This document shows, piece after piece, positions 480 through 44,325 of a stretch of 64,000 nucleotides of DNA. The stretch comes from a virus. The position numbers and the translations under genes were made by a program. The notes beneath the pieces were generated by a model. It did not search any database, was not told where the DNA came from, and worked only from the letters and a program-made list of their open reading frames with translations. Position 1 is the first letter of the stretch; each line of letters opens with the position of its first letter. The DNA lies in the IMG/VR virus record IMGVR_UViG_3300012039_000001. One strand, written 5' to 3'.

Positions 480-492
480 TAGGACACTAGGT

Positions 493-565
493 GGGCTTGT
501 AGCTTAATGGTTAAAGCAAGGAACTCATAATTCCGAGATTCTGTGTTCGAGTCACAGCAGGCCCA
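493..565 (+). tRNA. tRNA with CAT anticodon (elongator Met or Ile2-lysidine type)
   Basis: Hand-folded cloverleaf: acceptor GGGCTTG/CAGGCCC, D stem GCTT/AAGC, anticodon loop CTCATAA, T arm CTGTG-TTCGAGT-CACAG, discriminator A. Pair 1-72 is G-C, so it is not a bacterial initiator. Confidence 0.85.
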
Positions 566-596
566 CCCTCTGCCCTATTCCCAATCAGGAGACAAT

Positions 597-3995: not shown

Positions 3996-4069
3996 GCCCT
4001 CGTAGCTCAATGGATTAGAGCGATCGGTTTCTACCCGATAGGTTGGGGGTTCGAGTCCCTCCGGGGGTA
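3996..4069 (+). tRNA. tRNA-Arg (TCT)
   Basis: Acceptor GCCCTCG/CGGGGGT (two G-U pairs), D arm GCTC-AATGGATTA-GAGC, anticodon stem ATCGG/CCGAT with loop TTTCTAC, T arm GGGGG-TTCGAGT-CCCTC. Confidence 0.9.
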
Positions 4070-5078: not shown

Positions 5079-5259
5079 TGAGTGCGGACATAGCATCATA
5101 TCTTTTTCTTCTTACGAAGAAGCTAGGTCTTTTTATGATCTTGAATTAGAAAAAAAGAATATGCCAAGAGAAAGTTTTAAAAAACAATTCGGAGTGTTTG
5201 CGGATCAATCCACAGATATTTGTTTGTGCGAAGTCTTAAGGGGAGAGGGAGTGTTTTAA
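5047..5259 (+). CDS. hypothetical protein
   Basis: 70-aa ORF. Its stop overlaps the next start (TAATG). Confidence 0.45.
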   Translation: MYLVIQTWPDNECGHSIISFSSYEEARSFYDLELEKKNMPRESFKKQFGVFADQSTDICLCEVLRGEGVF

Positions 5260-5744
5260 TGAAAAGAAAAGCAGTTTACGCTGGTAGTTTTGACCCACCG
5301 CACCTGGGCCATGAATGGATGATCCAAAGAGGTTCTGAGATATTCGATGAGTTGGTGATTCTAGTAGCAAAAAACCCAGAAAAAACAGAGTCGTTGCCTT
5401 TAAGTGTTAGGATAGAATTATTAGGAGATATAGCAGATCATCTTGAAAACGTGTTTGTAGCTTGTCTGCCTGTACATGAGTTTACAGTTAATTATGCATT
5501 TGAGAAGGGTTATAACTTCCTTCTAAGGGGAATAAGAGGAAGCAATGATTTCGAGTACGAAAGACAATTGATGATAGTAAACTCAGAGATAAATGATAGG
5601 GTGACTACAATCTTCCTTGTCCCGCCAAATGATTTAACAATTATTAGCTCTAGTCTTATTAAAGGGTTAATGAAAAATGGTACAGGAAGAAGTATCGTGG
5701 CTAAGATGGTAAATCCAAAAGTCTTAGGAGAAATGTATGAGTAA
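5259..5744 (+). CDS. coaD: phosphopantetheine adenylyltransferase-family nucleotidyltransferase (CoaD-like)
   Basis: Collinear with bacterial CoaD: 'AVYAGSFDPPHLGH' (HxGH motif), 'FDELVILVAKNPEK', 'LLRGIRGSNDFEYE', 'ISSSLIKG'. ATG 5259 chosen (MKRKAVY). Confidence 0.85.
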   Translation: MKRKAVYAGSFDPPHLGHEWMIQRGSEIFDELVILVAKNPEKTESLPLSVRIELLGDIADHLENVFVACLPVHEFTVNYAFEKGYNFLLRGIRGSNDFEYERQLMIVNSEINDRVTTIFLVPPNDLTIISSSLIKGLMKNGTGRSIVAKMVNPKVLGEMYE

Positions 5745-6348
5745 TTTAATGAAGAATTTAGAAGTCACCTATAGTTTTCTTAACAGATATAAAGAGTCTC
5801 ATAGAAAATATCATAATCTAGCTCATATCGAAGATTGTTTATGGAAGTTTGACTTAATCAGACATCTTTTACATAAACCAGACCTAGTGGAAATCGCTCT
5901 TATTGCACACGATTTAGTTTACGATCCTAGATCTAAATTAAATGAAAAGCAAAGCGCAACTTTAATAACAGACCATATGAGGTCTAGGAGAGATATTTGG
6001 ACCCAGACAGATATATTCTTTGTCGACCAATTAATTATGGCGACACAACATAATTGGCCTTACCCTCTAGGTCATGACGTTGCTTACATGGTTGATATTG
6101 ACTTGTCTAGTTTGGGAAGTAGCCGGGCAGAATTCTTCGAAGGTGGAAGGAATATTAGAGACGAGTATCATTTTGTACCAATCTACGAGTTCTGTCAAGC
6201 AAGGGCGAAATTTTTAAAGGATCTATTAACTAGGCCAAGTATTTTTCAAACAACAGTATTCAATAGATTATTTGAACTCAAGGCTAGAGAAAATATTAAA
6301 GAAGCTATTGGGTATCTGGAAAAGGGAGAAGATAAGCATTATGTCTAA
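5737..6348 (+). CDS. HD-superfamily metal-dependent phosphohydrolase (COG4339-like)
   Basis: 'YHNLAHIEDCL' and 'ALIAHDLVYD' give an H...HD pattern. 203 aa, overlapping the CoaD-like gene. Confidence 0.6.
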   Translation: MSNLMKNLEVTYSFLNRYKESHRKYHNLAHIEDCLWKFDLIRHLLHKPDLVEIALIAHDLVYDPRSKLNEKQSATLITDHMRSRRDIWTQTDIFFVDQLIMATQHNWPYPLGHDVAYMVDIDLSSLGSSRAEFFEGGRNIRDEYHFVPIYEFCQARAKFLKDLLTRPSIFQTTVFNRLFELKARENIKEAIGYLEKGEDKHYV

Positions 6349-6710: not shown

Positions 6711-7379
6711 ATGAAGAAGTTTTTGTTTGGGTTGATGTTTGCTTGTATGTGTAGTTTAGCTTCGGCTAACGTAGTTGTGAGGGTTGACAATGGGATCGGA
6801 GATGGGCCAGGTGGTGAGTTTAATCTTACCCCAATTTCTGGTTGGGATTTTGCCCCATCTTCATTAACGCATGATGGTTATTTTGAATCTTTCTGTCTAG
6901 AGAGAGACGAACGAACCTTCTTTGATCGTGAATTCTATGGAGAATTCAATACGGGAGCAACTCTTGGAGGTGGTGGAGCCATTGATGGTTTCGATCCTCT
7001 AAGTAATCAAACGGCCTACCTATATCGTCAATTTATCGACGGTAATCTTTCAGATTACGACTATGCTCTAGGAAGTGGTAGGGTTGATTCGGCAAATGCT
7101 CTTCAAGATGTCATTTGGTTTATTGAGGAAGAGCAGGATAAGAATTGGACGGACGGAAACGGTTCTCTTCAAGATCTATTTTATCAAGATGCTCTTGCTA
7201 ACGCGGGTAATGATCTAGCTGGGGTACACGTTATTAACATGTACACTGGCTACGGAAAGGATTTCCGACATCGACAAGATATGTTAGTGGCAACAGCACA
7301 AGTTCCGCTTCCGGGAGCCGCTTTGCTTGGATTGATTGGTTTCGGAAGTGTTCGTTTCTTCCGACGTAAATTGTCTTAA
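6711..7379 (+). CDS. secreted protein with PEP-CTERM / VPLPA-CTERM-type sorting signal
   Basis: Signal peptide MKKFLFGLMFACMCSLASA. C-terminus 'VPLPGAALLGLIGFGSVRFFRRKLS' is motif, TM helix and basic tail. The gene is visibly more GC-rich than its neighbours. Confidence 0.75.
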   Translation: MKKFLFGLMFACMCSLASANVVVRVDNGIGDGPGGEFNLTPISGWDFAPSSLTHDGYFESFCLERDERTFFDREFYGEFNTGATLGGGGAIDGFDPLSNQTAYLYRQFIDGNLSDYDYALGSGRVDSANALQDVIWFIEEEQDKNWTDGNGSLQDLFYQDALANAGNDLAGVHVINMYTGYGKDFRHRQDMLVATAQVPLPGAALLGLIGFGSVRFFRRKLS

Positions 7380-7399
7380 TCTTTCGGGTTTGATTAGGT

Positions 7400-7473
7400 A
7401 TAGACGTAGTTTAAAGTTGGAAGAATACTTCATTGTCCTTGAAGCGATGCACGTTCGAATCGTGCCGTCTATA
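7400..7473 (+). tRNA. tRNA-Asp (GTC), atypical C at position 37
   Basis: Acceptor ATAGACG/CGTCTAT, D stem GTTT/GAAT, anticodon stem CTTCA/TGAAG with loop TTGTCCT, T arm GCACG-TTCGAAT-CGTGC, discriminator A. Confidence 0.75.
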
Positions 7474-7475
7474 TG

Positions 7476-7548
7476 GCGGGTGTAGCTCAACTGGTAGAGC
7501 ACTAGTTTTCCAAACTAGAGGTAGCAGGTTCAAGCCCTGTCACCCGCA
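7476..7548 (+). tRNA. tRNA-Gly (TCC)
   Basis: Acceptor GCGGGTG/CACCCGC, D arm GCTC-AACTGGTA-GAGC, anticodon stem CTAGT/ACTAG with loop TTTCCAA, T arm GCAGG-TTCAAGC-CCTGT. Confidence 0.9.
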
Positions 7549-7565
7549 ATATTGAAAGGAGTTGT

Positions 7566-7739
7566 ATGGCAACAATTTTTTGTATTATTTGGTTCAGTAT
7601 TTTTTCTGTAAGACTTTTAGGTTTTATGTTTCTAACGGAGGCAAAGGCAAGAGATTTTATTCGTCATCCAAGATTAGAATTTATTTTATGGACTGTGTGT
7701 CTATCGTGGTTAATTAATACATTGATTAATATAGGATAA
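7566..7739 (+). CDS. small membrane protein (57 aa, below ORF-track cutoff)
   Basis: ATG 7566 follows AAGGAG. Translation MATIFCIIWFSIFSVRLLGFMF...LWTVCLSWLINTLINIG has two hydrophobic helices. Confidence 0.45.
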   Translation: MATIFCIIWFSIFSVRLLGFMFLTEAKARDFIRHPRLEFILWTVCLSWLINTLINIG

Positions 7740-7743
7740 TAAA

Positions 7744-7920
7744 ATGTATAAAGTTTATTCAGGTGCTCTTCTCGTAATCTCTTCGTTACTTTTCTTTCTC
7801 AGTGGTTTTGTAGCACACATACGAGAAGGTAAATGCATTCCAATGTCCGTGGCGTTGTCAATACTTGGAGTTTTTGCGCTAATTGGTTCTATAGAGTTAT
7901 TTCATAAAAGCAGCGACTAA
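7744..7920 (+). CDS. small membrane protein (58 aa, below ORF-track cutoff)
   Basis: Translation MYKVYSGALLVISSLLFFLSGFVAHIREGKCIPMSVALSILGVFALIGSIELFHKSSD has two hydrophobic helices and fills the gap. Confidence 0.45.
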   Translation: MYKVYSGALLVISSLLFFLSGFVAHIREGKCIPMSVALSILGVFALIGSIELFHKSSD

Positions 7921-7935
7921 ACATGGAGCAATCAA

Positions 7936-8421
7936 ATGAAAATCTTAGCCCTATCAAGAGAGGCAGCAGAGGATTTCGTTGCCAATCATAGAGATAGAAA
8001 ACTGGCAGTTATATCAATAACTGATCCAAAAAGCAAATTGGCTAAAATTAGAGATTTGCCTATTTTGAGACTTCAGTTCCATGATATTGAGAAAAATTAT
8101 CCTATTAGCAGTGAGTGCGGTATAAAGTTTACGACTCTCATGGCCGAGGAAATAATTGGCTTTGTTGATAGAATAAAAGATATTTCTGAGATCTTGGTGA
8201 TTCATTGCGAGGCAGGTATTTCAAGAAGTGCAGCAACAGCAGCGGCTATTTCTAGAATACTTAATTTGGATGTATCAAGATATTTTAAATATCCTTATAT
8301 ACCAAATAAATTAGTTTATCAAACGATAATGAAGTGCCATCTTGGCACAGATAAAGATGTAGATATGCCAATAGTTGAGCCTTTAGTGAATAAGTTGCCA
8401 GACGATTATTTTGGAGTTTAA
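7936..8421 (+). CDS. Cys-based (PTP/DSP-superfamily) phosphatase
   Basis: Exact C-x5-R-S P-loop 'HCEAGISRS' in a 161-aa protein. The upstream 'LRLQFHDIE' is typical of small predicted tyrosine phosphatases. Confidence 0.7.
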   Translation: MKILALSREAAEDFVANHRDRKLAVISITDPKSKLAKIRDLPILRLQFHDIEKNYPISSECGIKFTTLMAEEIIGFVDRIKDISEILVIHCEAGISRSAATAAAISRILNLDVSRYFKYPYIPNKLVYQTIMKCHLGTDKDVDMPIVEPLVNKLPDDYFGV

Positions 8422-8433
8422 AGGAGAAATAAA

Positions 8434-8652
8434 ATGTTAGTAAAAGCTTACCAGAAAAGTTTCGAGACTAATTATAATAATGTTCATGTTGGAACCTGTT
8501 TTTGGTATGAGAAAAATCTGTATATGAAAACTATGGACGTATATGGGAGCCCTGGATACGCGGTTAGATTAAGCAGTGGCAAAGCGTTTTGGTTCAATAG
8601 TGTTACAATGGTAACTCCTGATTACGATGTTAATGTCGTTAATGGCAAATAA
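8434..8652 (+). CDS. hypothetical protein
   Basis: 72-aa ORF, tightly packed. No motif recognised. Confidence 0.5.
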   Translation: MLVKAYQKSFETNYNNVHVGTCFWYEKNLYMKTMDVYGSPGYAVRLSSGKAFWFNSVTMVTPDYDVNVVNGK

Positions 8653-8653
8653 A

Positions 8654-9556
8654 ATGAATATAATAACAATTCATAATACAGTGGATGACGAAATAGTTGA
8701 GTATCCTTATGAGTCCCTAATATTCCCAGGTGGGGAGCCTCATATTAAACTAGACCCAAAATGGTTTTCTGGTAAAGTGATTTGGATTAACGCTAGGATT
8801 GGTGATTGTAATGGGTTTATGACTTTGATGTGTCTAATTGACGCCATTAAAGCGTGCAAACCGAAAAAGCTGGGTTTATTTATCCCATATCTCCCAGGAG
8901 CGAGACAGGACAGAAGGGAGTTTGGGACGGCACATACTTTACGTGTCTATGCGGAAATGATAAAAGCCGCTAATTTGGATTTAGTTGTGGTTGTTGATCC
9001 ACACTCAAATGTTCTTGAAGGAATTTTAGATCCAAGAATAGTGGGACAAGAAGAAATTGTACCTAAAGTGCATTATGGTGGATATGACGCTATAATTTGT
9101 CCAGACGCAGGAGCAGAAAAGCGTGTAAGTAAAGTTGCAAATGAATTAAAAGTAACCAGTATTATACATGCAAGCAAAAAGAGGGATGTAGTAACTGGTA
9201 AGCTATCTGGTTTTTCCATCCAAAATCCTCTTATATTCCCAGACAATAATAAGGTCTACAAATATTTAATAGTAGATGACATTTGTGATGGTGGAGGCAC
9301 ATTTATTGGGTTGGCCAAAGAAATAAATAGAACTTTCCTTCAAAAGTATCAATTAGATTTATTTATCAGTCACGCCATCTTCTCTAAGGGAATTGATGAT
9401 TTATTGCAATGTTTCAATAGAATAATAACAACAGATTCATTTCCATTTGAGAATTTTGAATTAGCGAATGATTGGATTAAATATGGACAATCAAAAGTTT
9501 TAGTCAGTAGGTTGATTTTCTTGGCTCAGGATATAATGAAAAAGGAGTTAATATAA
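8654..9556 (+). CDS. prs: ribose-phosphate pyrophosphokinase-family protein (Prs-like; possible ADPR pyrophosphokinase)
   Basis: 'FPGGEPHIKL', 'IPYLPGARQDR', 'VVVDPHS' and the PRPP loop 'LIVDDICDGGGTF' are collinear with Prs. ATG 8654 follows the previous stop. Confidence 0.85.
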   Translation: MNIITIHNTVDDEIVEYPYESLIFPGGEPHIKLDPKWFSGKVIWINARIGDCNGFMTLMCLIDAIKACKPKKLGLFIPYLPGARQDRREFGTAHTLRVYAEMIKAANLDLVVVVDPHSNVLEGILDPRIVGQEEIVPKVHYGGYDAIICPDAGAEKRVSKVANELKVTSIIHASKKRDVVTGKLSGFSIQNPLIFPDNNKVYKYLIVDDICDGGGTFIGLAKEINRTFLQKYQLDLFISHAIFSKGIDDLLQCFNRIITTDSFPFENFELANDWIKYGQSKVLVSRLIFLAQDIMKKELI

Positions 9557-9744
9557 TGGAAAAGGCAAAGTATAAGTATTATGTTGTTGTAAAGGAAGTG
9601 TGGAATAATAACATTATAATAGAAAGCGATAATCCTCTAACGAGAGAAGATTTAATAAAAGAAGTTGAAAAAGACATAGAAGAAGGCGACTTGGCTTACA
9701 GCCATACGCTAGAATCAGATGAATGGGAAACAGGAGAACTATAA
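9556..9744 (+). CDS. hypothetical acidic protein
   Basis: 62-aa ORF bridging the Prs-like and NAMPT-like genes, with start and stop overlaps on both sides. Confidence 0.5.
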   Translation: MEKAKYKYYVVVKEVWNNNIIIESDNPLTREDLIKEVEKDIEEGDLAYSHTLESDEWETGEL

Positions 9745-11198
9745 TGAATCCAATAGAGCTTATTGACGGTTATAAAATAGGTCATAAAGATCAGTACCCA
9801 AAAGGAACTCAAAGGATCTATTCTAATTGGACCCCGCGTTCATCTAGAATCGAAGGACAAAAAGAAGTTGTAACATTTGGTCTTCAATACTTTTTAAAGC
9901 ACTACCTAAAGGATATTTTCCAAACTTTCTTCTTTGATAAGCCAAGACACGAAGTTGAAAGAGAATACGCAGATAGAATTAAAGCCTATCTAAACCTACA
10001 GGAATTTGATACGAGTCACATTGGCGAGCTTCACGAATTAGGTTATTTGCCACTAGAATTTCGTGCTTTGCCAGAAGGAACATTGTGTCCTCTCGGTGTT
10101 CCAATGTTTACTGTTGAAAATACAGATGATAGATTCTTTTGGTTAGTGAACTATATTGAAACACTTATTTCAAATAGTATTTGGATTGGGTCAACTTCTG
10201 CTACATCAGCGTATCGTTTAAGAAAACTATTAAATACAGCGTGTCTAATGACCGGAGGAGATCCTGGGTTTGTCCAGTGGCAAGGGCATGACTTTAGCAT
10301 GAGAGGTATGGCAGGACTAGACGCAGCTATATTGTCTGGAGCGGGACATTTACTTTCATTTACAGGCACGGATACTATTCCGGCTATTGGGTTTGTTGAG
10401 AAATATTATCCAGGAGAAAATGGTTTAATTGGAGGTAGTGTTCCGGCAACAGAACATTCAGTAATGTGTGCCGGAGGAGAAGAAACTGAACTTGAAACAT
10501 TTAATAGACTCTTGGACATTTATCCCACTGGAGTATTATCTGTGGTGAGCGATACATGGGATTTATGGAAAGTAATAACTGGAATTCTTCCACGCCTTGT
10601 AAATAAGATAATGAATAGAGACGGCAAAGTTGTAATTAGGCCTGACAGTGGAGACCCAGTTAAGATTATTTGCGGAAATCCAGATGGAAAATCCGAGGCA
10701 GAAATTAAGGGAGTTGTTCAACTGCTTTGGGAAATCTTTGGAGGAACAATAAGCTCTAATAGCGATGGTTCTTTTAAGCATCTTGACCCTCATATTGGAG
10801 TAATTTACGGAGATGCAATTACTTACGAAAGAGCACAAGCTATTTGTGAAGGATTGAGGCAAAAGGGATTTGCTTCAACTAATATTGTGTTTGGTGTTGG
10901 TAGTTATACTTACCAATATGTAACTAGAGATACTTATGGTTTCGCAATGAAGGCTACTTGGGCTAGAATTAACGATAAAGAGTTCAACCTATTCAAGAAA
11001 CCAGTGACAGATACAGGGGATAAATTCTCCGCTAAAGGACGACTGGCCGTCCTTAAAAATGATGAAGGCAAATTATATTTGGTAAATGAAGCTTCAGAAA
11101 AAGATCAACTGAAATCACAGCTACAATTGGTGTGGAGAAACGGGACTTTTACTAAAGCCCAATCGTTTAAAAATGTGAGGGAGACGTTATGGGGTTAA
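9744..11198 (+). CDS. nadV: nicotinamide phosphoribosyltransferase-family protein (NadV/NAMPT-like; possible Namat)
   Basis: 484 aa. N-terminal 'DGYKIGHKDQYP', then 'HDFSMRGM', 'SVPATEHSVM', 'VIRPDSGDP' and 'VIYGDAIT' are typical of the NAMPT family. Confidence 0.9.
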   Translation: MNPIELIDGYKIGHKDQYPKGTQRIYSNWTPRSSRIEGQKEVVTFGLQYFLKHYLKDIFQTFFFDKPRHEVEREYADRIKAYLNLQEFDTSHIGELHELGYLPLEFRALPEGTLCPLGVPMFTVENTDDRFFWLVNYIETLISNSIWIGSTSATSAYRLRKLLNTACLMTGGDPGFVQWQGHDFSMRGMAGLDAAILSGAGHLLSFTGTDTIPAIGFVEKYYPGENGLIGGSVPATEHSVMCAGGEETELETFNRLLDIYPTGVLSVVSDTWDLWKVITGILPRLVNKIMNRDGKVVIRPDSGDPVKIICGNPDGKSEAEIKGVVQLLWEIFGGTISSNSDGSFKHLDPHIGVIYGDAITYERAQAICEGLRQKGFASTNIVFGVGSYTYQYVTRDTYGFAMKATWARINDKEFNLFKKPVTDTGDKFSAKGRLAVLKNDEGKLYLVNEASEKDQLKSQLQLVWRNGTFTKAQSFKNVRETLWG

Positions 11199-11380
11199 AA
11201 GGTATTAGAAAATATTGCACATGGGGTTTCTATAAACCAGATTCGATTTTTGAACTTTTAAATCCTCTGATTTCTATATGGATAGAAAAAGAGGCAAACT
11301 ATTCTTTCGAAGTCCATTTTGGCCTTTTTGGATTTGCAATTTGTGTTATTTTTGATCCAAAGGGAAGACTCATCGTGTAG
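11189..11380 (+). CDS. hypothetical protein
   Basis: 63-aa ORF overlapping the nadV end by 10 nt. Weak similarity to the next ORF. Confidence 0.4.
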   Translation: MGLKGIRKYCTWGFYKPDSIFELLNPLISIWIEKEANYSFEVHFGLFGFAICVIFDPKGRLIV

Positions 11381-11390
11381 AGGAGAAAAA

Positions 11391-11636
11391 ATGAGGAATT
11401 ATTGGTGTCCGATAGAGAACAAATTTGTTCGTTTATTTTTTGAAAGACCAGATAGTTGGAGGACTGTTTTAAGTAGTTTTGTTTTTATAAAAGTAGGATT
11501 CGAGACGTATAGTCATATACCAAATAAGCAATTTGTGGTTGAACTAAGCTTTTTTGGTTTTGATTTTGCATTGGAAATAGATTTTCAGGGTGAGATTGAT
11601 CCTTATTATAAAGTTTGGGGAGAAAGAAATGTATAA
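11391..11636 (+). CDS. hypothetical protein
   Basis: ATG 11391 is preceded by AGGAG (11381-11385). 81 aa. Confidence 0.45.
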   Translation: MRNYWCPIENKFVRLFFERPDSWRTVLSSFVFIKVGFETYSHIPNKQFVVELSFFGFDFALEIDFQGEIDPYYKVWGERNV

Positions 11637-11958
11637 TGATATTTTATTTACTATCACTAATGCTTTACATGTTTTACAAAACGAAGTTGTTTTAAATAGG
11701 TGGGTATCTGGGATATCTTCTTTGGTCGTATCTGTTATTGGATCGTTTCTTTTATATCTATCTTTAAAATATCTGTTCAAGACTCCGTGGAGTGATTTAG
11801 ATGATGAAAAGGTAGTGCCTGGGGTTATATGTATTCTAGCTAGTGCGATATTAACTGTTTTACTGTTAATATGTGTAGCAAATACCGTAAGTAGTTTACA
11901 GGATATGCATAGCCCTAATCTGTATTTGTTGAGAGGTTTTATTAAAGTTGGAGGTTAG
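11629..11958 (+). CDS. membrane protein
   Basis: ATG 11629. Two long hydrophobic helices (ISSLVVSVIGSFLLYLSL, VICILASAILTVLLLICVA). Confidence 0.5.
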   Translation: MYNDILFTITNALHVLQNEVVLNRWVSGISSLVVSVIGSFLLYLSLKYLFKTPWSDLDDEKVVPGVICILASAILTVLLLICVANTVSSLQDMHSPNLYLLRGFIKVGG

Positions 11959-11963
11959 TATAA

Positions 11964-12383
11964 ATGTCTAGAATGAAGCCTTATAATCAATTAAATGGTC
12001 AAGAGGCTGAATTTGCAACTAAAAACAAATTAGGAACTAAGGAATGGTCAGTTAAAGTAAAGGGAATGCGGAAAAGGCCGGATAGCGATGTTTCTAAGGT
12101 GGCAGGAAATGGAGAATATGGCTTTCATGCTAGGAGACAAGGGAAAGACCCAGTAAAGTTTGTAGGAACTCCAGATGGAACTCTTAAAAAGGCAAGAAAA
12201 TCTGTAGTTAGGCCAAATCAGAGGAAGTCAAGATGCTTTGTGCCTAAAGAATATTTGGGCACTTTTAATATAATGCAGATTCTTATTAAAGAATCGAGTA
12301 AGCCCAAATCAGTAATTAAACTAGAGAGAAAGAAGAGGACAAGAAACAGGAGAGCTAATTATGGTAGAAACAAAGCTGTATAG
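11964..12383 (+). CDS. highly basic protein
   Basis: 139 aa, Lys/Arg-rich throughout (…KKRTRNRRANYGRNKAV). Function not assignable. Confidence 0.5.
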   Translation: MSRMKPYNQLNGQEAEFATKNKLGTKEWSVKVKGMRKRPDSDVSKVAGNGEYGFHARRQGKDPVKFVGTPDGTLKKARKSVVRPNQRKSRCFVPKEYLGTFNIMQILIKESSKPKSVIKLERKKRTRNRRANYGRNKAV

Positions 12384-19815: not shown

Positions 19816-20532
19816 ATGACAAAAGATAAAAATATCGAAGATATAGCAAAAAAAATATTTAAATTAATTAAAAAATACTGCTTTTCAAGAGGAGAATTGA
19901 CAAAGATCCTTGATAAAGCTTCGTATGCTGTGTCTAAAAATTTTACAACAACTTTAGATAAAATTAAAAGCAAAAAAAGTAACGCAGTCAAAGAGTTGAA
20001 TAAAGATATAAATGATGCAAAAAGTTTATTCTTACTATTCTCAAATGAAATGTCTGAATATCTTCGAGATGTAGAAGATATAAGAACTAACTTTAATTTA
20101 GACCATTTTCTAGCAGAGATAAAATATTTATTTTCAATTTTTGATAAAGTTGAAATCAAAGGCACAGAAATAATGGCCTCTACAAAGGAAGATGTAATTC
20201 TTCAATGCGGTGAACAAGATATAAATATAAATCTTGGAAAATTTAGAATATGTTTTGATATAGAAATTTATTATGAGACAAAAGAGTTAAATAAAGCTAT
20301 ATTAGCAAAAGCAATAACTCCAAGATTAGATTATAGTAGAAATTATACACATCCACATGTAAATTGTAACGGAGCAATATGTCTGGGAGATGGATATTCA
20401 TTGATACAGTCAGCTATAAAAGAATATAGAATATCTGACATTTTTCAAATAGTACAATCTATTTTAAAAACATATGGCGAAGATCCAATGGTGTATTTAG
20501 ATGATTTTAGAAAAGGAGATGATGATGAATAA
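19816..20532 (+). CDS. E2 (UBC)-like protein, second paralog (no Cys array)
   Basis: 'THPHVNCNGAICLGDGY...ISDIFQIVQSILKTY' aligns with 17694..18896. Candidate catalytic Cys189. GGAG RBS at 19806-19809. Confidence 0.6.
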   Translation: MTKDKNIEDIAKKIFKLIKKYCFSRGELTKILDKASYAVSKNFTTTLDKIKSKKSNAVKELNKDINDAKSLFLLFSNEMSEYLRDVEDIRTNFNLDHFLAEIKYLFSIFDKVEIKGTEIMASTKEDVILQCGEQDININLGKFRICFDIEIYYETKELNKAILAKAITPRLDYSRNYTHPHVNCNGAICLGDGYSLIQSAIKEYRISDIFQIVQSILKTYGEDPMVYLDDFRKGDDDE

Positions 20533-21184
20533 TAGATATGCAAGACAAAAAGATTTAGTCCCAGGCGATAAAATTAAAGACATACAAATTACAGTAATAG
20601 GAACAGGAGCAATAGGTAGACAGTGTTCAATACAATTAGCAACAATGGGCGCAGTAAATTTAAATATAATAGATTTTGACACCGTAGAAGAAGCAAATTT
20701 AGGAGCACAAGGATTTTATGAACAGGATCTTAAAAAGCAAAAAGTAGAAGCAGTCAAAGAGGTTTGTCAACAAATAAATTCGTCGTGCGTTATAAATGCA
20801 ATAAATGCAAAATTCAATAAATTTATGGACCTTGGAATAAATAATGTAGTCTTTTGTTGCGTAGATTCTATTGATACGCGCAAACAAATATTTGAAGCAA
20901 TAGGCAATCAGGTAAGATTATTTATAGATGGTAGAATGTCTGCCGAATTTGGCAGAGTATTCTGTGTTTTTGATGAAAAATCTAACGATTTCTATAAGAC
21001 GCAACTCTTCCCACAAAGAGAGGCATTTAATGGAAGTTGCACGGCAAAGACAACGATTTACGCAAGTAATATAATTTCGGGGTGGATGGTCTCTCAATTT
21101 GCGAAGTGGTTAAGAGGAATTGAGCTAGATAGCGGAGTAGATATCAATATACTTACAAATGAAATAAAGGCTTATAACAAATGA
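20525..21184 (+). CDS. minimal ThiF/MoeB/E1-like adenylation enzyme
   Basis: 'RYARQ', Rossmann loop 'VIGTGAIGRQ' and 'IDFDTVEEANLGAQ' (D.D.V...NL.RQ pattern). The start is one of three tandem ATGs (20519, 20522, 20525) after AAGGAG, overlapping the upstream stop. Confidence 0.8.
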   Translation: MNNRYARQKDLVPGDKIKDIQITVIGTGAIGRQCSIQLATMGAVNLNIIDFDTVEEANLGAQGFYEQDLKKQKVEAVKEVCQQINSSCVINAINAKFNKFMDLGINNVVFCCVDSIDTRKQIFEAIGNQVRLFIDGRMSAEFGRVFCVFDEKSNDFYKTQLFPQREAFNGSCTAKTTIYASNIISGWMVSQFAKWLRGIELDSGVDINILTNEIKAYNK

Positions 21185-29225: not shown

Positions 29226-29237
29226 TTGGAGAATAAA

Positions 29238-30281
29238 ATGGAGTATTGTTTTGATGACATCCTTCTTCTGCCCCGATATTCAGAACTAGAATCACGTAAA
29301 TCACCAAATATTTCAACTAAAATTGGGAATATAGAATTAGGTATACCACTGATCTCTAGTCCTATGGATACTATAACTGAACATGAAATGGCGGCAACAA
29401 TGCATAAGTCTGGCGGACTAGGTATTCTTACTAGATATGTTGGAAAAAATACATGGGATAGTGTTATATTACAGGAATATCAACTTAAAAAATCTATTAG
29501 TAAACATATATCTACTCCTCACAACACATTAAACATAGGAATAGCAATTGGGCTAAATGACCATCGCATAATAGAAAATCTAATTGGAATTCTTGATTTA
29601 AAGAAAAATCCAAATTATTCTATAGAATTTGTTGTGTGCATTGATGTTGCCCATGCAGACCATAAGAAGGTTCATCAGGTCATAAGAGAAATAAATAAGA
29701 TAAGAAAAGATAATAAATTCGTTTTAATGGTTGGCAATGTTTGTACATACAACGCTACTTTATCATTAGCTGATTTAGGAGTTGATGCTATTCGAGTTGG
29801 CATTGGAAGTGGGAGTATTTGTTCTACTAGATTGGTAACAGGATTTGGCCGTCCACAATTGTCTGCAATACAAGATTGTGCAAGAGTAAAGAAATTATAT
29901 CCAAATATAGCTATTATAAGTGACGGAGGCTGTAGGCGCACGGATCATGTTATAAAAGCTTTGTGGGCAGGGGCAGATGCGGTTATGTTAGGATATATGT
30001 TTGCTAATAGTTCCGCTTGCCCAAAAATTAATGGGGAAAGAATTTATAGAGGAATGAGCAGCCATGAAGCTTCGGGGAGAACAGACATAGCCTCAGAAGG
30101 GGTAAGAATACCAGTAAAAGATAAGGGTAATACTGGAGAGTTACTACAAAAATACATATCTGGAATTAAAGCTGGCTTAGCAATGGCCGGAGCAAGAAAC
30201 ATTGAAGAGTTAAGAAGATGTGAATTTGTTCATGTCTCTCCGTTGTCAATTAAAGAAACTAACCCATATTTAGAAGGATAA
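29238..30281 (+). CDS. GMP reductase / IMP dehydrogenase-family enzyme (no CBS insert)
   Basis: 'FDDILLLPR', 'PLISSPMDTIT', catalytic-Cys loop 'GIGSGSICSTR', 'ISDGGCR' and 'GADAVMLG'. The ~347-aa size fits GuaC, but I cannot separate GuaC from a CBS-less IMPDH by eye. Confidence 0.85.
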   Translation: MEYCFDDILLLPRYSELESRKSPNISTKIGNIELGIPLISSPMDTITEHEMAATMHKSGGLGILTRYVGKNTWDSVILQEYQLKKSISKHISTPHNTLNIGIAIGLNDHRIIENLIGILDLKKNPNYSIEFVVCIDVAHADHKKVHQVIREINKIRKDNKFVLMVGNVCTYNATLSLADLGVDAIRVGIGSGSICSTRLVTGFGRPQLSAIQDCARVKKLYPNIAIISDGGCRRTDHVIKALWAGADAVMLGYMFANSSACPKINGERIYRGMSSHEASGRTDIASEGVRIPVKDKGNTGELLQKYISGIKAGLAMAGARNIEELRRCEFVHVSPLSIKETNPYLEG

Positions 30282-42695: not shown

Positions 42696-42917
42696 TTGAA
42701 AAAAGATCAGATTTGCACGATATGTGGGGAGAAAATAGTGTGCATGGTTCCTGTATACAAAATGTTTAAAGCAGAACTTTTAGCCAGTGGTGACTTAATA
42801 TATGATTTTAAAGAGAACCATCTAGTCCACCTTACATGTTTTAGTCCTCCACTTTTTGTTAAAAAAGAAATAAATAAGCCAGACAACGATTGGTTAGATG
42901 GAGTAGTTAATGAATAA
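42696..42917 (+). CDS. small Cys/His protein
   Basis: TTG start follows GGAG. 'CTICGEKIVC ... HLVHLTC' is a possible zinc site. It overlaps the start of the BrxL-like gene. Confidence 0.45.
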   Translation: MKKDQICTICGEKIVCMVPVYKMFKAELLASGDLIYDFKENHLVHLTCFSPPLFVKKEINKPDNDWLDGVVNE

Positions 42918-44325
42918 AGAAATTATTAATGATCTTGTATTAAGAAAAATATTAATAGATAAATCTCTTTTAAGAATATCAGATAATTTTAAAAAATTAC
43001 CAAGATACGTTGTAGAATATTTAATTTCTAATTTTGTAGACAAAAATAATAAACAACAAGGAATTGAAAGAATCAACAAAATCATAAACGAAAATCATAT
43101 AGAATCTGATAAAAAAGAGTGGGTCAAAAATAAAATAAAAATAAATGGAAAATATAATTTAATAGGCGACTTAAAATGCTCTTATGACCAATATAGCAAT
43201 GAGTATATAGCACACACAACTGTTCTGTCTGGTAACAAGGTAAGAGTGTCTAAAAGTGTCATAGATCAATTTGGTGACGTTTTACTCAGCGGAGGTTGTT
43301 TCGGCAACTGTTTAATAGAATTCGTCAATCCAGGCCTAATGTCAAAAAAACAAGATCCATATCACCTTACTTCCTTTATACCGTTTAAAATAACAAAGAT
43401 AACAATTCAAGAGTGGTTAAAAATAAGAGAGAAGTTTTCCTTAGACGAATGGATTAATCTAATTATCAATACGCTTGGATTTAATCCAGAAAAATTATCA
43501 GAAAATGAAAAATGGTTGTATTTATTTAGATTAATACCATTAGTTGAATCAAATATTAATTTTATAGAACTTTCTAGTCCTGAGACAGGAAAGACATATT
43601 TTTATAGATCAATAAGTAATAATAGTCTCATTCTATCTGGTTCCGATATAACCGTAGCTTCATTATTTTATAATAAAGTATCTAAAAGAGCGGGAGTATT
43701 AGGGAATAAAGACTGTGTAATATTTGACGAAATAGTAACCGCTAATTGGAATAATAAAAAAGATCTTCAAAATATATTAAAAGATTATTTAGAAAATGGA
43801 AAGTTCAATAGAGATAATGTAGAAATATCTAGTGATTGTTCTATTGTATTTTTAGGAAATATAGTTTGCGACAGAGGAAACAAGAAACCATTAGATATAT
43901 ATAAACATCTCCTCGATCCTCTTCCAGAGATAATTAAAAATGATACCGCTTTTCTCGATAGGATAAATGGATTTATCCCAGGATGGGAAGCGCCTCAAAT
44001 ATCTTCTTCTAATTTTTCTGAAGACTATGGATTTTCTAGTGATTACTTTAGTGAAATATTACATAAATTAAGAACAGTTTCTTTTTCAGAATTGATAAAA
44101 TCAAAAATAGATTTTCAAGATACTTCATTTAGGAATGAAAGATCAGTTATAAAAATTACGTCGGGGTTAATCAAGGTCTTATTCCCATCTGGTCGAATTA
44201 ATAATGATGAGTTAGAAATATTAGTTGAAAAGTCAGTTGAGTTAAGAGAAAGAGTTCTACAACAACTACACGTAATAAATCCCAATGAATTTAACGGAGA
44301 AATAAAATGGCAATTAAAAAATTAA
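42910..44325 (+). CDS. BrxL-like ATPase (N-terminal domain + ATPase, no Lon protease domain)
   Basis: 'LPRYVVEYLISNF', 'INFIELSSPETGKTYFY' (Walker A), 'ITVASLFYN', 'CVIFDEI' (Walker B) and 'LKDYLENGKFNR...IVFLGNI' are collinear with BREX BrxL as I recall it. 471 aa, ending before where the Lon-like domain would be. Confidence 0.7.
   Translation: MNKEIINDLVLRKILIDKSLLRISDNFKKLPRYVVEYLISNFVDKNNKQQGIERINKIINENHIESDKKEWVKNKIKINGKYNLIGDLKCSYDQYSNEYIAHTTVLSGNKVRVSKSVIDQFGDVLLSGGCFGNCLIEFVNPGLMSKKQDPYHLTSFIPFKITKITIQEWLKIREKFSLDEWINLIINTLGFNPEKLSENEKWLYLFRLIPLVESNINFIELSSPETGKTYFYRSISNNSLILSGSDITVASLFYNKVSKRAGVLGNKDCVIFDEIVTANWNNKKDLQNILKDYLENGKFNRDNVEISSDCSIVFLGNIVCDRGNKKPLDIYKHLLDPLPEIIKNDTAFLDRINGFIPGWEAPQISSSNFSEDYGFSSDYFSEILHKLRTVSFSELIKSKIDFQDTSFRNERSVIKITSGLIKVLFPSGRINNDELEILVEKSVELRERVLQQLHVINPNEFNGEIKWQLKN

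Follow-up and report, generated by a model that had tools for sequence, protein, structure and literature searches.

Sequence discriminators point to a NARP1 NAD+ reconstitution operon with an orphan middle gene in a large uncultivated phage

We analysed a 64,000-nucleotide stretch of viral DNA (IMG/VR record IMGVR_UViG_3300012039_000001; hereafter the window) in which a gene for a Prs-like protein lies just upstream of one for a NAMPT-like protein. True Prs makes phosphoribosyl pyrophosphate (PRPP) and true NadV/NAMPT makes nicotinamide mononucleotide (NMN); in the NAD+ reconstitution pathway NARP1, the corresponding enzymes are Adps and Namat. We find that the locus is very probably a NARP1 operon (Adps plus Namat) of three co-directional, translationally coupled genes. 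An earlier note had proposed NARP1 for the pair but could not separate Adps and Namat from ordinary Prs and NadV by eye, a distinction that published sequence discriminators now allow. Its proposal is supported by the presence of the SCH/SCL clamp, a closest match to a Namat structure, placement in the Adps clade, and the catalytic Lys and PP loop of Adps. The analysis establishes the family and clade membership of the two proteins, the conservation of their catalytic and specificity residues and the adjacency of their genes; we infer the reactions and the anti-defence benefit by homology to characterised NARP1 members.

The Prs-like open reading frame (ORF) spans 8627..9556 (+), and its start is ambiguous, with candidates at 8627, 8633, 8642 and 8654 and a clear Shine-Dalgarno sequence at none of them. 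The ATG at 8654 gives a product of 300 amino acids (aa), and public gene callers place the start at 8642 (304 aa). All three Prs hallmarks quoted for this gene in the earlier note (IPYLPGARQDR, VVVDPHS and LIVDDICDGGGTF) are present. The NAMPT-like ORF occupies 9723..11198 (+) and encodes 484 aa if the ATG at 9744 is used; it was rightly described as full-length, as its residues 6-482 align with positions 11-489 of a crystal-structure chain of 491 aa. The single 62-aa ORF reported between the two enzymes was also found, and it is translationally coupled to both. The stop codon of the Prs-like gene (TAA, 9554-9556) has one base in common with the ATG of the 62-aa ORF, and the stop codon of the latter (TAA, 9742-9744) likewise overlaps the NAMPT-like start codon by one base; each junction reads TAATG, and AGGAG stands 8-10 nt 5' of both ATGs, a good ribosome-binding site in the case of the 62-aa ORF. 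Overlap had been claimed for all junctions; it holds for these two internal ones, but at the upstream junction the 8654 start leaves a 1-nt gap, and only the 8642 start produces an overlap. In a scan of 7300..12000, promoter-like sites were fewer than shuffled sequence gave, and neither flank of the operon had a convincing terminator. The Prs-like protein matches Pfam families PF00156 (8e-8) and PF13793 (1e-5) and phrog_619 (4e-67), and the NAMPT-like protein PF04095 (8e-42), PF18127 (1e-9) and phrog_448 (4e-188). Standard annotation would mislabel the pair as PRPP synthetase and nicotinate/nicotinamide phosphoribosyltransferase.

The most direct discriminator lies in the NAMPT-like protein. 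Structures of SPbetaL1 Namat (9W5X/9W5W) define an adenine selectivity clamp, formed by residue R40 of the SCL and by the SCH motif (PMC12774641). The SCH signature is GS-X-Phi1-X-Phi2-X-Phi3-TRD, in which the X residues at positions 3 and 7 are aromatic, and the SCL loop supplies an Arg, Lys or Tyr stacking residue, R40 in SPbetaL1 (PMC12774641). True Nampts are without the clamp, which is required for NAD+ synthesis driven by ADP-ribose pyrophosphate (ADPR-PP) and dispensable for NMN synthesis (PMC12774641). Residues 386-396 of the NAMPT-like protein, GSYTYQYVTRD, carry this signature, with Y at the three X positions and T, Q and V as Phi1 to Phi3; N397 of the SPbetaL1 motif is replaced by V, a change inside the published consensus. 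R35 aligns with R40 of SPbetaL1, in a loop that reads TPRSSR-IEG against TPRTSR-VED. Of the 21 residues with which SPbetaL1 Namat contacts NAD+, all are kept, 20 of them unchanged and one conservatively substituted (F392 to Y388); the counterparts include D8, Y10, R35, F184, S185, R187, D210, A235, R299, D301, G356, D357, A358, G386, S387, Y388, Y392, T394, R395 and D396. The NAMPT catalytic core (F189, D215, R306, D308 and the catalytic His) is conserved as F184, D210, R299, D301 and ATEHSVMCA. The Nampt used for comparison, a partial NMNAT-associated (NARP2-type) sequence of phage CcrSC that stood in for KVP40 Nampt, reads GGGMATADMDRD at the SCH position and is 29% identical to the NAMPT-like protein.

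Overall similarity points the same way. When the NAMPT-like protein was compared with all PDB sequences, SPbetaL1 Namat gave the best solved-structure matches (9W5X/9W5W, 556.9 bits, E 3e-166), whereas mammalian NAMPT structures scored at most 245 bits and 7yqo 203 bits. The protein is 53.7% identical to the Namat of SPbetaL1, 53.8% to that of FADO and 53% to that of DyoEdafos, the NARP1 operons of which are experimentally validated (SPbetaL1 and FADO, bioRxiv 10.1101/2024.02.11.579819; DyoEdafos, bioRxiv 10.64898/2026.05.28.727677). On sequence grounds it clusters with Adps-associated Namat, apart from NMNAT-associated Nampt. A side observation concerns PDB 9ke8/9keo, solved as a 'nicotinamide phosphoribosyltransferase', which scored 441 bits against the window protein, between Namat (557) and NAMPT (245), and which may be another Namat-like enzyme.

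The Prs-like protein was assessed with family models, custom profiles and a tree. It matched 11 NCBIfam Prs models, all far under their cut-offs; the best was TIGR01251 (84.5 bits against 113), and the NF00xxxx Prs equivalogs gave 40-67 bits against cut-offs of 296-536. FADO Adps, which has been validated in vivo (bioRxiv 10.1101/2024.02.11.579819), likewise falls under the TIGR01251 cut-off (96.5 against 113). We built profiles from the homologues in Osterman Table S1 that are flagged as Namat-associated ('Yes') or not ('No'), leaving the query out of the Adps profile. The window protein scored 224.5 bits on the Adps profile against 65.3 on the Prs profile; among the controls, genuine Prs scored 86-143 bits on the Adps profile and genuine Adps 30-116 on the Prs profile. 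The phylogenetic placement that the earlier note had suggested was carried out as a neighbour-joining tree, a distance method (292 columns; 25 sequences, comprising 18 of the Adps clade and 7 Prs). The protein fell inside the Adps clade, the Namat-associated group that stands apart from cellular Prs in Fig. 3C of Osterman et al., and this clade was split from Prs in 200 of 200 bootstraps. Its neighbours were the homologues in mycobacteriophages Archie and Myrna and one from Frondihabitans that is linked to a Namat.

Residue-level comparison agrees with this placement. The motifs of the Adps clade are DPHS, PDxGA, KxRD..TG and DDICDGGxTF. The protein has the Adps-type motifs DPHS (DLH[AT] in Prs), PDAGAEKR (PDxG[GR] in Prs) and KKRDVVTGK, and its PP-loop motif is DDICDGGGTF where Prs has DDMIDTGGT[LI]; the loop itself, C211-D-G-G-G-T216, is followed by F217, against I-D-T-G-G-T and then L/I in Prs. 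Structures of ICP1 Adps, solved with ADPR/ATP and with ADPR-PP/AMP, mark F18, R87, H121, D161, K185, D212/D213, the remodelled PP loop C215-S220, which is conserved among Adps, and F221 (PMC13586617), R87, H121, D161, D212 and D213 being acceptor residues, and the counterparts in the window protein are F24, R84, H117, D151, K175, D208/D209, C211-T216 and F217, so that the adenine-stacking F18 is matched by F24. K175, in the motif SKKRDVVTG, aligns with the catalytic lysine of the beta-hairpin, K185 in ICP1 Adps and K162 in SPbetaL1 Adps, mutation of the latter of which abolishes the pathway (bioRxiv 10.1101/2024.02.11.579819).

Several observations weigh against the assignment to NARP1. The other adenine-stacking residue of ICP1 Adps, F92, lies in a variable RF loop and has no alignable counterpart in the window protein, nor in SPbetaL1 or FADO. 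One described signature of Adps is that they lack the C-terminal alpha11-alpha12 module of Prs (PMC13586617), yet the window protein keeps about 35 C-terminal residues after TTDSFP, in which KVLVSRLIFLAQDIMK aligns with the Prs alpha11 region; the terminal SVSxLF segment of Prs is absent, and the proteins of Archie, Myrna and Frondihabitans are alike in the C-terminal region. Identity to validated or Namat-associated Adps is only 25-36% (36% to Archie, 31% to DyoEdafos, 26% to SPbetaL1 and 25% to FADO). The Prs outgroup of the tree is small, consisting of E. coli and six actinobacterial sequences. On the Namat side, such enzymes still form NMN from PRPP in vitro (PMC12774641), and given this activity a contribution through PRPP is possible.

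Among isolated phages, the closest homologues of the Prs-like protein are in PAK_P1-like Pseudomonas phages and cluster-L-like mycobacteriophages (37-40% identity), and those looked up in Osterman Table S1, from PAK_P1, PaGz-1 and Archie, carry the Namat-associated flag there (bioRxiv 10.1101/2024.02.11.579819). The closest metagenomic homologues are 43-52% identical and lie on phage-sized contigs. Three chromosomal Tenacibaculum proteins annotated as 'ribose-phosphate diphosphokinase' (P0103, P0106 and P0108) are 42% identical, closer than any isolated-phage Adps that we found; they may be bacterial or prophage copies of NARP1 and a clue to the host phylum.

If the operon acts as its characterised relatives do, a host NADase defence of the SIR2, TIR or SEFIR type would split NAD+ into ADP-ribose and nicotinamide. 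The predicted Adps would then move the beta-gamma pyrophosphate of ATP onto the 1'' hydroxyl of ADP-ribose to give ADPR-PP, a step expected to rely on K175 and on the remodelled PP loop. The predicted Namat would exchange the pyrophosphate of ADPR-PP for nicotinamide and so yield NAD+ directly, with its preference for ADPR-PP over PRPP arising from the adenine clamp formed by R35 (SCL) and by Y388 and Y392 of the SCH motif.

Gene order is conserved in relatives. NARP1 operons are recognised by an adps gene within 10 genes of namat on a phage genome; here the two are on the same strand, separated by the 62-aa ORF. In 6 of 6 related metagenomic loci, this phage's contig counted, the Prs-like gene leads straight into the NAMPT-like gene; the two are directly adjacent in four, and a small ORF stands between them in the other two (this window and locus L009). 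In L009, on a 172.5-kb contig of JGI 3300007351, the slot holds an unrelated 106-aa ORF (6914..7234) with no family match. The adps-namat slot looks like a hotspot where small genes vary.

In other phages this slot is occupied by accessory enzymes, the Macro phosphatase Adpp in Vibrio phage Gary (bioRxiv 10.64898/2026.01.28.702374) and RyDEP, gene 78, in DyoEdafos (bioRxiv 10.64898/2026.05.28.727677). By analogy, the 62-aa ORF, coupled as it is to both enzymes, or a DUSP-fold cysteine phosphatase encoded two genes upstream (Table 1), might feed non-standard NAD+ breakdown products into the pathway, and a Cys-phosphatase is also encoded 1.4 kb upstream in L009. We consider such an extended form of NARP1 quite improbable. 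The 62-aa ORF had no match in Pfam (even at E <= 1), PHROGs or NCBIfam, none in 50,697 phage records, and among 5.8 billion proteins only itself (a 98% variant); a single-sequence AF2 model, of low confidence (pLDDT 65), consists of a beta-hairpin, a helix and an acidic tail that is disordered. Four of the six loci have nothing in the slot, and it is differently occupied in L009. The 62-aa protein could be an accessory or anti-defence protein specific to this lineage, or no more than a small phage ORF. It is unlikely to be a new factor that assists NARP1 or counters defence, such as a small inhibitor or sponge directed at an NADase effector or signal; if it were, the operon would be a third kind of extended NARP1.

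The phosphatase was considered as a dedicated, Adpp-like partner of NARP1 and found no support: only close relatives have it in the vicinity of NARP1, and L010-L012 do not have it. Its AF2 model is confident (pLDDT 91.6) but has a generic DUSP fold, with Foldseek matches to DUSP8/16/12 at a TM-score of about 0.56, and a match to the Rit1 DUSP-like model is weak and not significant (E 0.044). The family comprises about 160 metagenomic proteins, mostly on phage contigs, with no match among isolated phages; of its more distant members, three were checked, and all three lie in phage regions that have no NARP1.

Another explanation is that the pair is an ordinary metabolic one: PRPP from a true Prs and NMN from a true NadV/NAMPT would boost nucleotide and NAD+ salvage during infection, and host NadR/PncC would complete the synthesis of NAD+. 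Pfam, PHROG and NCBIfam labels are Prs-like and NAMPT/NAPRT-like, the ARQDR motif is Prs-like, and the in vitro synthesis of NMN from PRPP by Namat enzymes would fit. We nevertheless judge this very unlikely, for the Prs-like protein lies under every Prs cut-off and within the Adps clade, SPbetaL1 Adps gave no product with ribose-5-phosphate and ATP in the canonical Prs assay (Fig. 2D, bioRxiv 10.1101/2024.02.11.579819), and the NAMPT-like protein has a complete adenine clamp, which true NAMPTs do not.

The weakest alternative is a NARP2-type pathway, in which the Prs-like protein supplies PRPP, NMN comes from the NAMPT-like protein and is turned into NAD+ by an NMNAT encoded elsewhere on the 168.7-kb genome; a cytidylyltransferase-fold gene upstream of the operon (5259..5744) has weak NMNAT-family matches and the scan covers 64 kb of the contig, but we regard it as exceedingly improbable, as that gene is of the CoaD type, the window has no other HxGH motif or Nudix box, the NAMPT-like protein groups with Adps-associated Namat, and no phage with both pathways was found by Osterman et al. 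(bioRxiv 10.1101/2024.02.11.579819). The nucleotidyltransferase at 5259..5744 scores 138.5 bits on the CoaD equivalog (cut-off 103.3); as an NMNAT it was rejected, with 21-36 bits on NMNAT/NaMNAT models (cut-offs 112-341) and 34 of 34 PDB matches being phosphopantetheine adenylyltransferases. Neither the HxGH scan nor the families listed for the window showed an NMNAT, NadR or PnuC.

Returning to NARP1, we compared the locus with the known systems. Like the operons of the Bacillus phages SPbetaL1 and FADO, it has adps upstream of namat on one strand, a Namat about 54% identical with its NAD+-contact and clamp residues kept, and an Adps with the catalytic Lys conserved. Unlike theirs, its Adps is only 25-26% identical and of a different subclade, its PP loop reads DDICDGGGTF rather than DDLSS(F/Y)GGTF, the 62-aa gene is inserted, and it comes from an uncultivated phage, on a contig of about 169 kb and 32% GC. 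The DyoEdafos operon with RyDEP shares the order adps, small gene, namat, has an Adps from the nearest subclade and a Namat at 53% identity; its gene 78, however, encodes 138 aa with PF02026, whereas the middle gene here encodes 62 aa with no RyR-domain match. ICP1 Adps (PMC13586617) differs in that its F92 and F223 are not conserved here and that the window protein has a longer C-terminal tail.

The NARP1-AP operon of Vibrio phage Gary (Adps, Adpp, Namat) likewise has an extra gene between adps and namat, but here no Macro domain, nor a RyR domain, was found in the operon or among the window families listed (25 of 51 for the second half of the window); as a control in the same Pfam run, DyoEdafos gene 78 matched PF02026. 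With no Macro domain found, nothing predicts that the operon handles ADPR-1''-phosphate. KVP40 NARP2 (Nampt plus Nmnat) and NARP3 (PnuC plus NadR, PMC13464706) serve the same purpose, restoring NAD+ under NADase defence. NARP2 also uses a NAMPT-fold enzyme, with a Nampt sequence in place of the Namat clamp seen here. Cellular Prs and NadV/NAMPT have the same folds, the catalytic Lys/Asp and the NAMPT core (R299, D210, F184 and the TEHS histidine). The window proteins depart from cellular Prs in the unmatched cut-offs, in DDICDGGGTF against DDMIDTGGT, in DPHS against DLH(A/T) and in having no C-terminal SVSxLF, and from cellular NAMPT in the adenine clamp, present in the window protein only.

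We therefore regard the locus as a new, moderately divergent NARP1 member, the residual novelty of which is its orphan middle gene and a divergent Adps subclade. Its interest is low to moderate because NARP1 has already been reported in about 4% of sequenced phages (bioRxiv 10.1101/2024.02.11.579819), and the new example leaves the understanding of the pathway unchanged. It extends the Adps family by a divergent lineage of large, uncultivated, low-GC phages that has 25-36% identity to the characterised or Namat-associated Adps used for comparison, and it illustrates that the Namat clamp motif, together with the PP loop and clade rules for Adps, lets a metagenomic Prs/NAMPT pair be assigned to NARP1 without experiments. 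The operon would imply NAD+-depleting immunity in the host.

Among metagenomic contigs, the window corresponds to ENA ERZ27267676 k141_601989, which is 168,682 bp long; shorter contigs, from JGI sample 3300012173 and from two further ENA assemblies, also carry the operon region and encode an identical Prs-like protein. GC content along the window is 29-39%, and nearly all long ORFs, including every family-assigned gene, are on the plus strand. Four tRNA genes are present (Met-CAT, Arg-TCT, Asp-GTC and Gly-TCC). The window is rich in auxiliary genes of phage type, which encode a ribonucleotide reductase, ThyX, dCMP deaminase, T4-type RNA ligases and an Mre11-like exonuclease; others of this type encode HNH endonucleases, ClpP and a peptide deformylase. 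The window looks phage-derived because of its phage-family ribonucleotide reductase, RNA ligase and exonuclease, its four tRNAs and its near-single-strand coding, and it reads as the early or nucleotide-metabolism arm of a large uncultivated phage.

Table 1. Features of the predicted operon and its surroundings, with positions in the window
Feature	Position	Strand	Basis	Remark
tRNA genes	492..568, 3996..4069, 7399..7548			Asp/Gly pair about 1.1 kb 5' of operon
CoaD-type phosphopantetheine adenylyltransferase	5259..5744		TIGR01510 equivalog cut-off passed	3 kb upstream of operon
DUSP-fold cysteine phosphatase	7936..8421		HCEAGISRS, AF2 model	two genes upstream of adps
adps, predicted Prs-fold ADP-ribose pyrophosphokinase	8654..9556	+	profiles, neighbour-joining tree, residues	
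acidic 62-aa ORF	9556..9744	+	ORF, TAATG overlaps	slot between adps and namat
namat, predicted NAMPT-fold nicotinamide ADP-ribose transferase	9744..11198	+	PDB sequence match, clamp residues	

Several further genes deserve mention. The CoaD-type gene overlaps one for an HD-like phosphohydrolase (phrog_19425) by 8 nt, the two spanning 5259..6348; it is unusual for a phage to encode a predicted enzyme of the CoA pathway. Between this pair and the operon, 6711..7379 encodes a 222-aa protein whose N-terminal segment is signal-like and whose C-terminal tail, VPLPGAALLGLIGFG...RRK, resembles a PEP-CTERM sorting signal. No family match supports this tail at 6711..7379; if true, it would hint at a Gram-negative host with an exosortase. 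At 20501..21184 lies a ThiF/E1-like adenylyltransferase, with a Prok-JAB match in the same half of the window (1..32 kb), and the two proteins could be a ubiquitin-like conjugation or deconjugation pair; the 1..32 kb set also gave a weak match to the anti-phage 6A-MBL cap2_3 model. The product of 29226..30281 has an IMPDH/GMP-reductase fold (PF00478, 1e-73) and falls under every NCBIfam equivalog cut-off. Finally, 42910..44325 encodes a full-length homologue of BrxL, the BREX Lon-like protein (TIGR02688, 410 bits against a cut-off of 329; Pfam BrxL_N and BrxL_ATPase).

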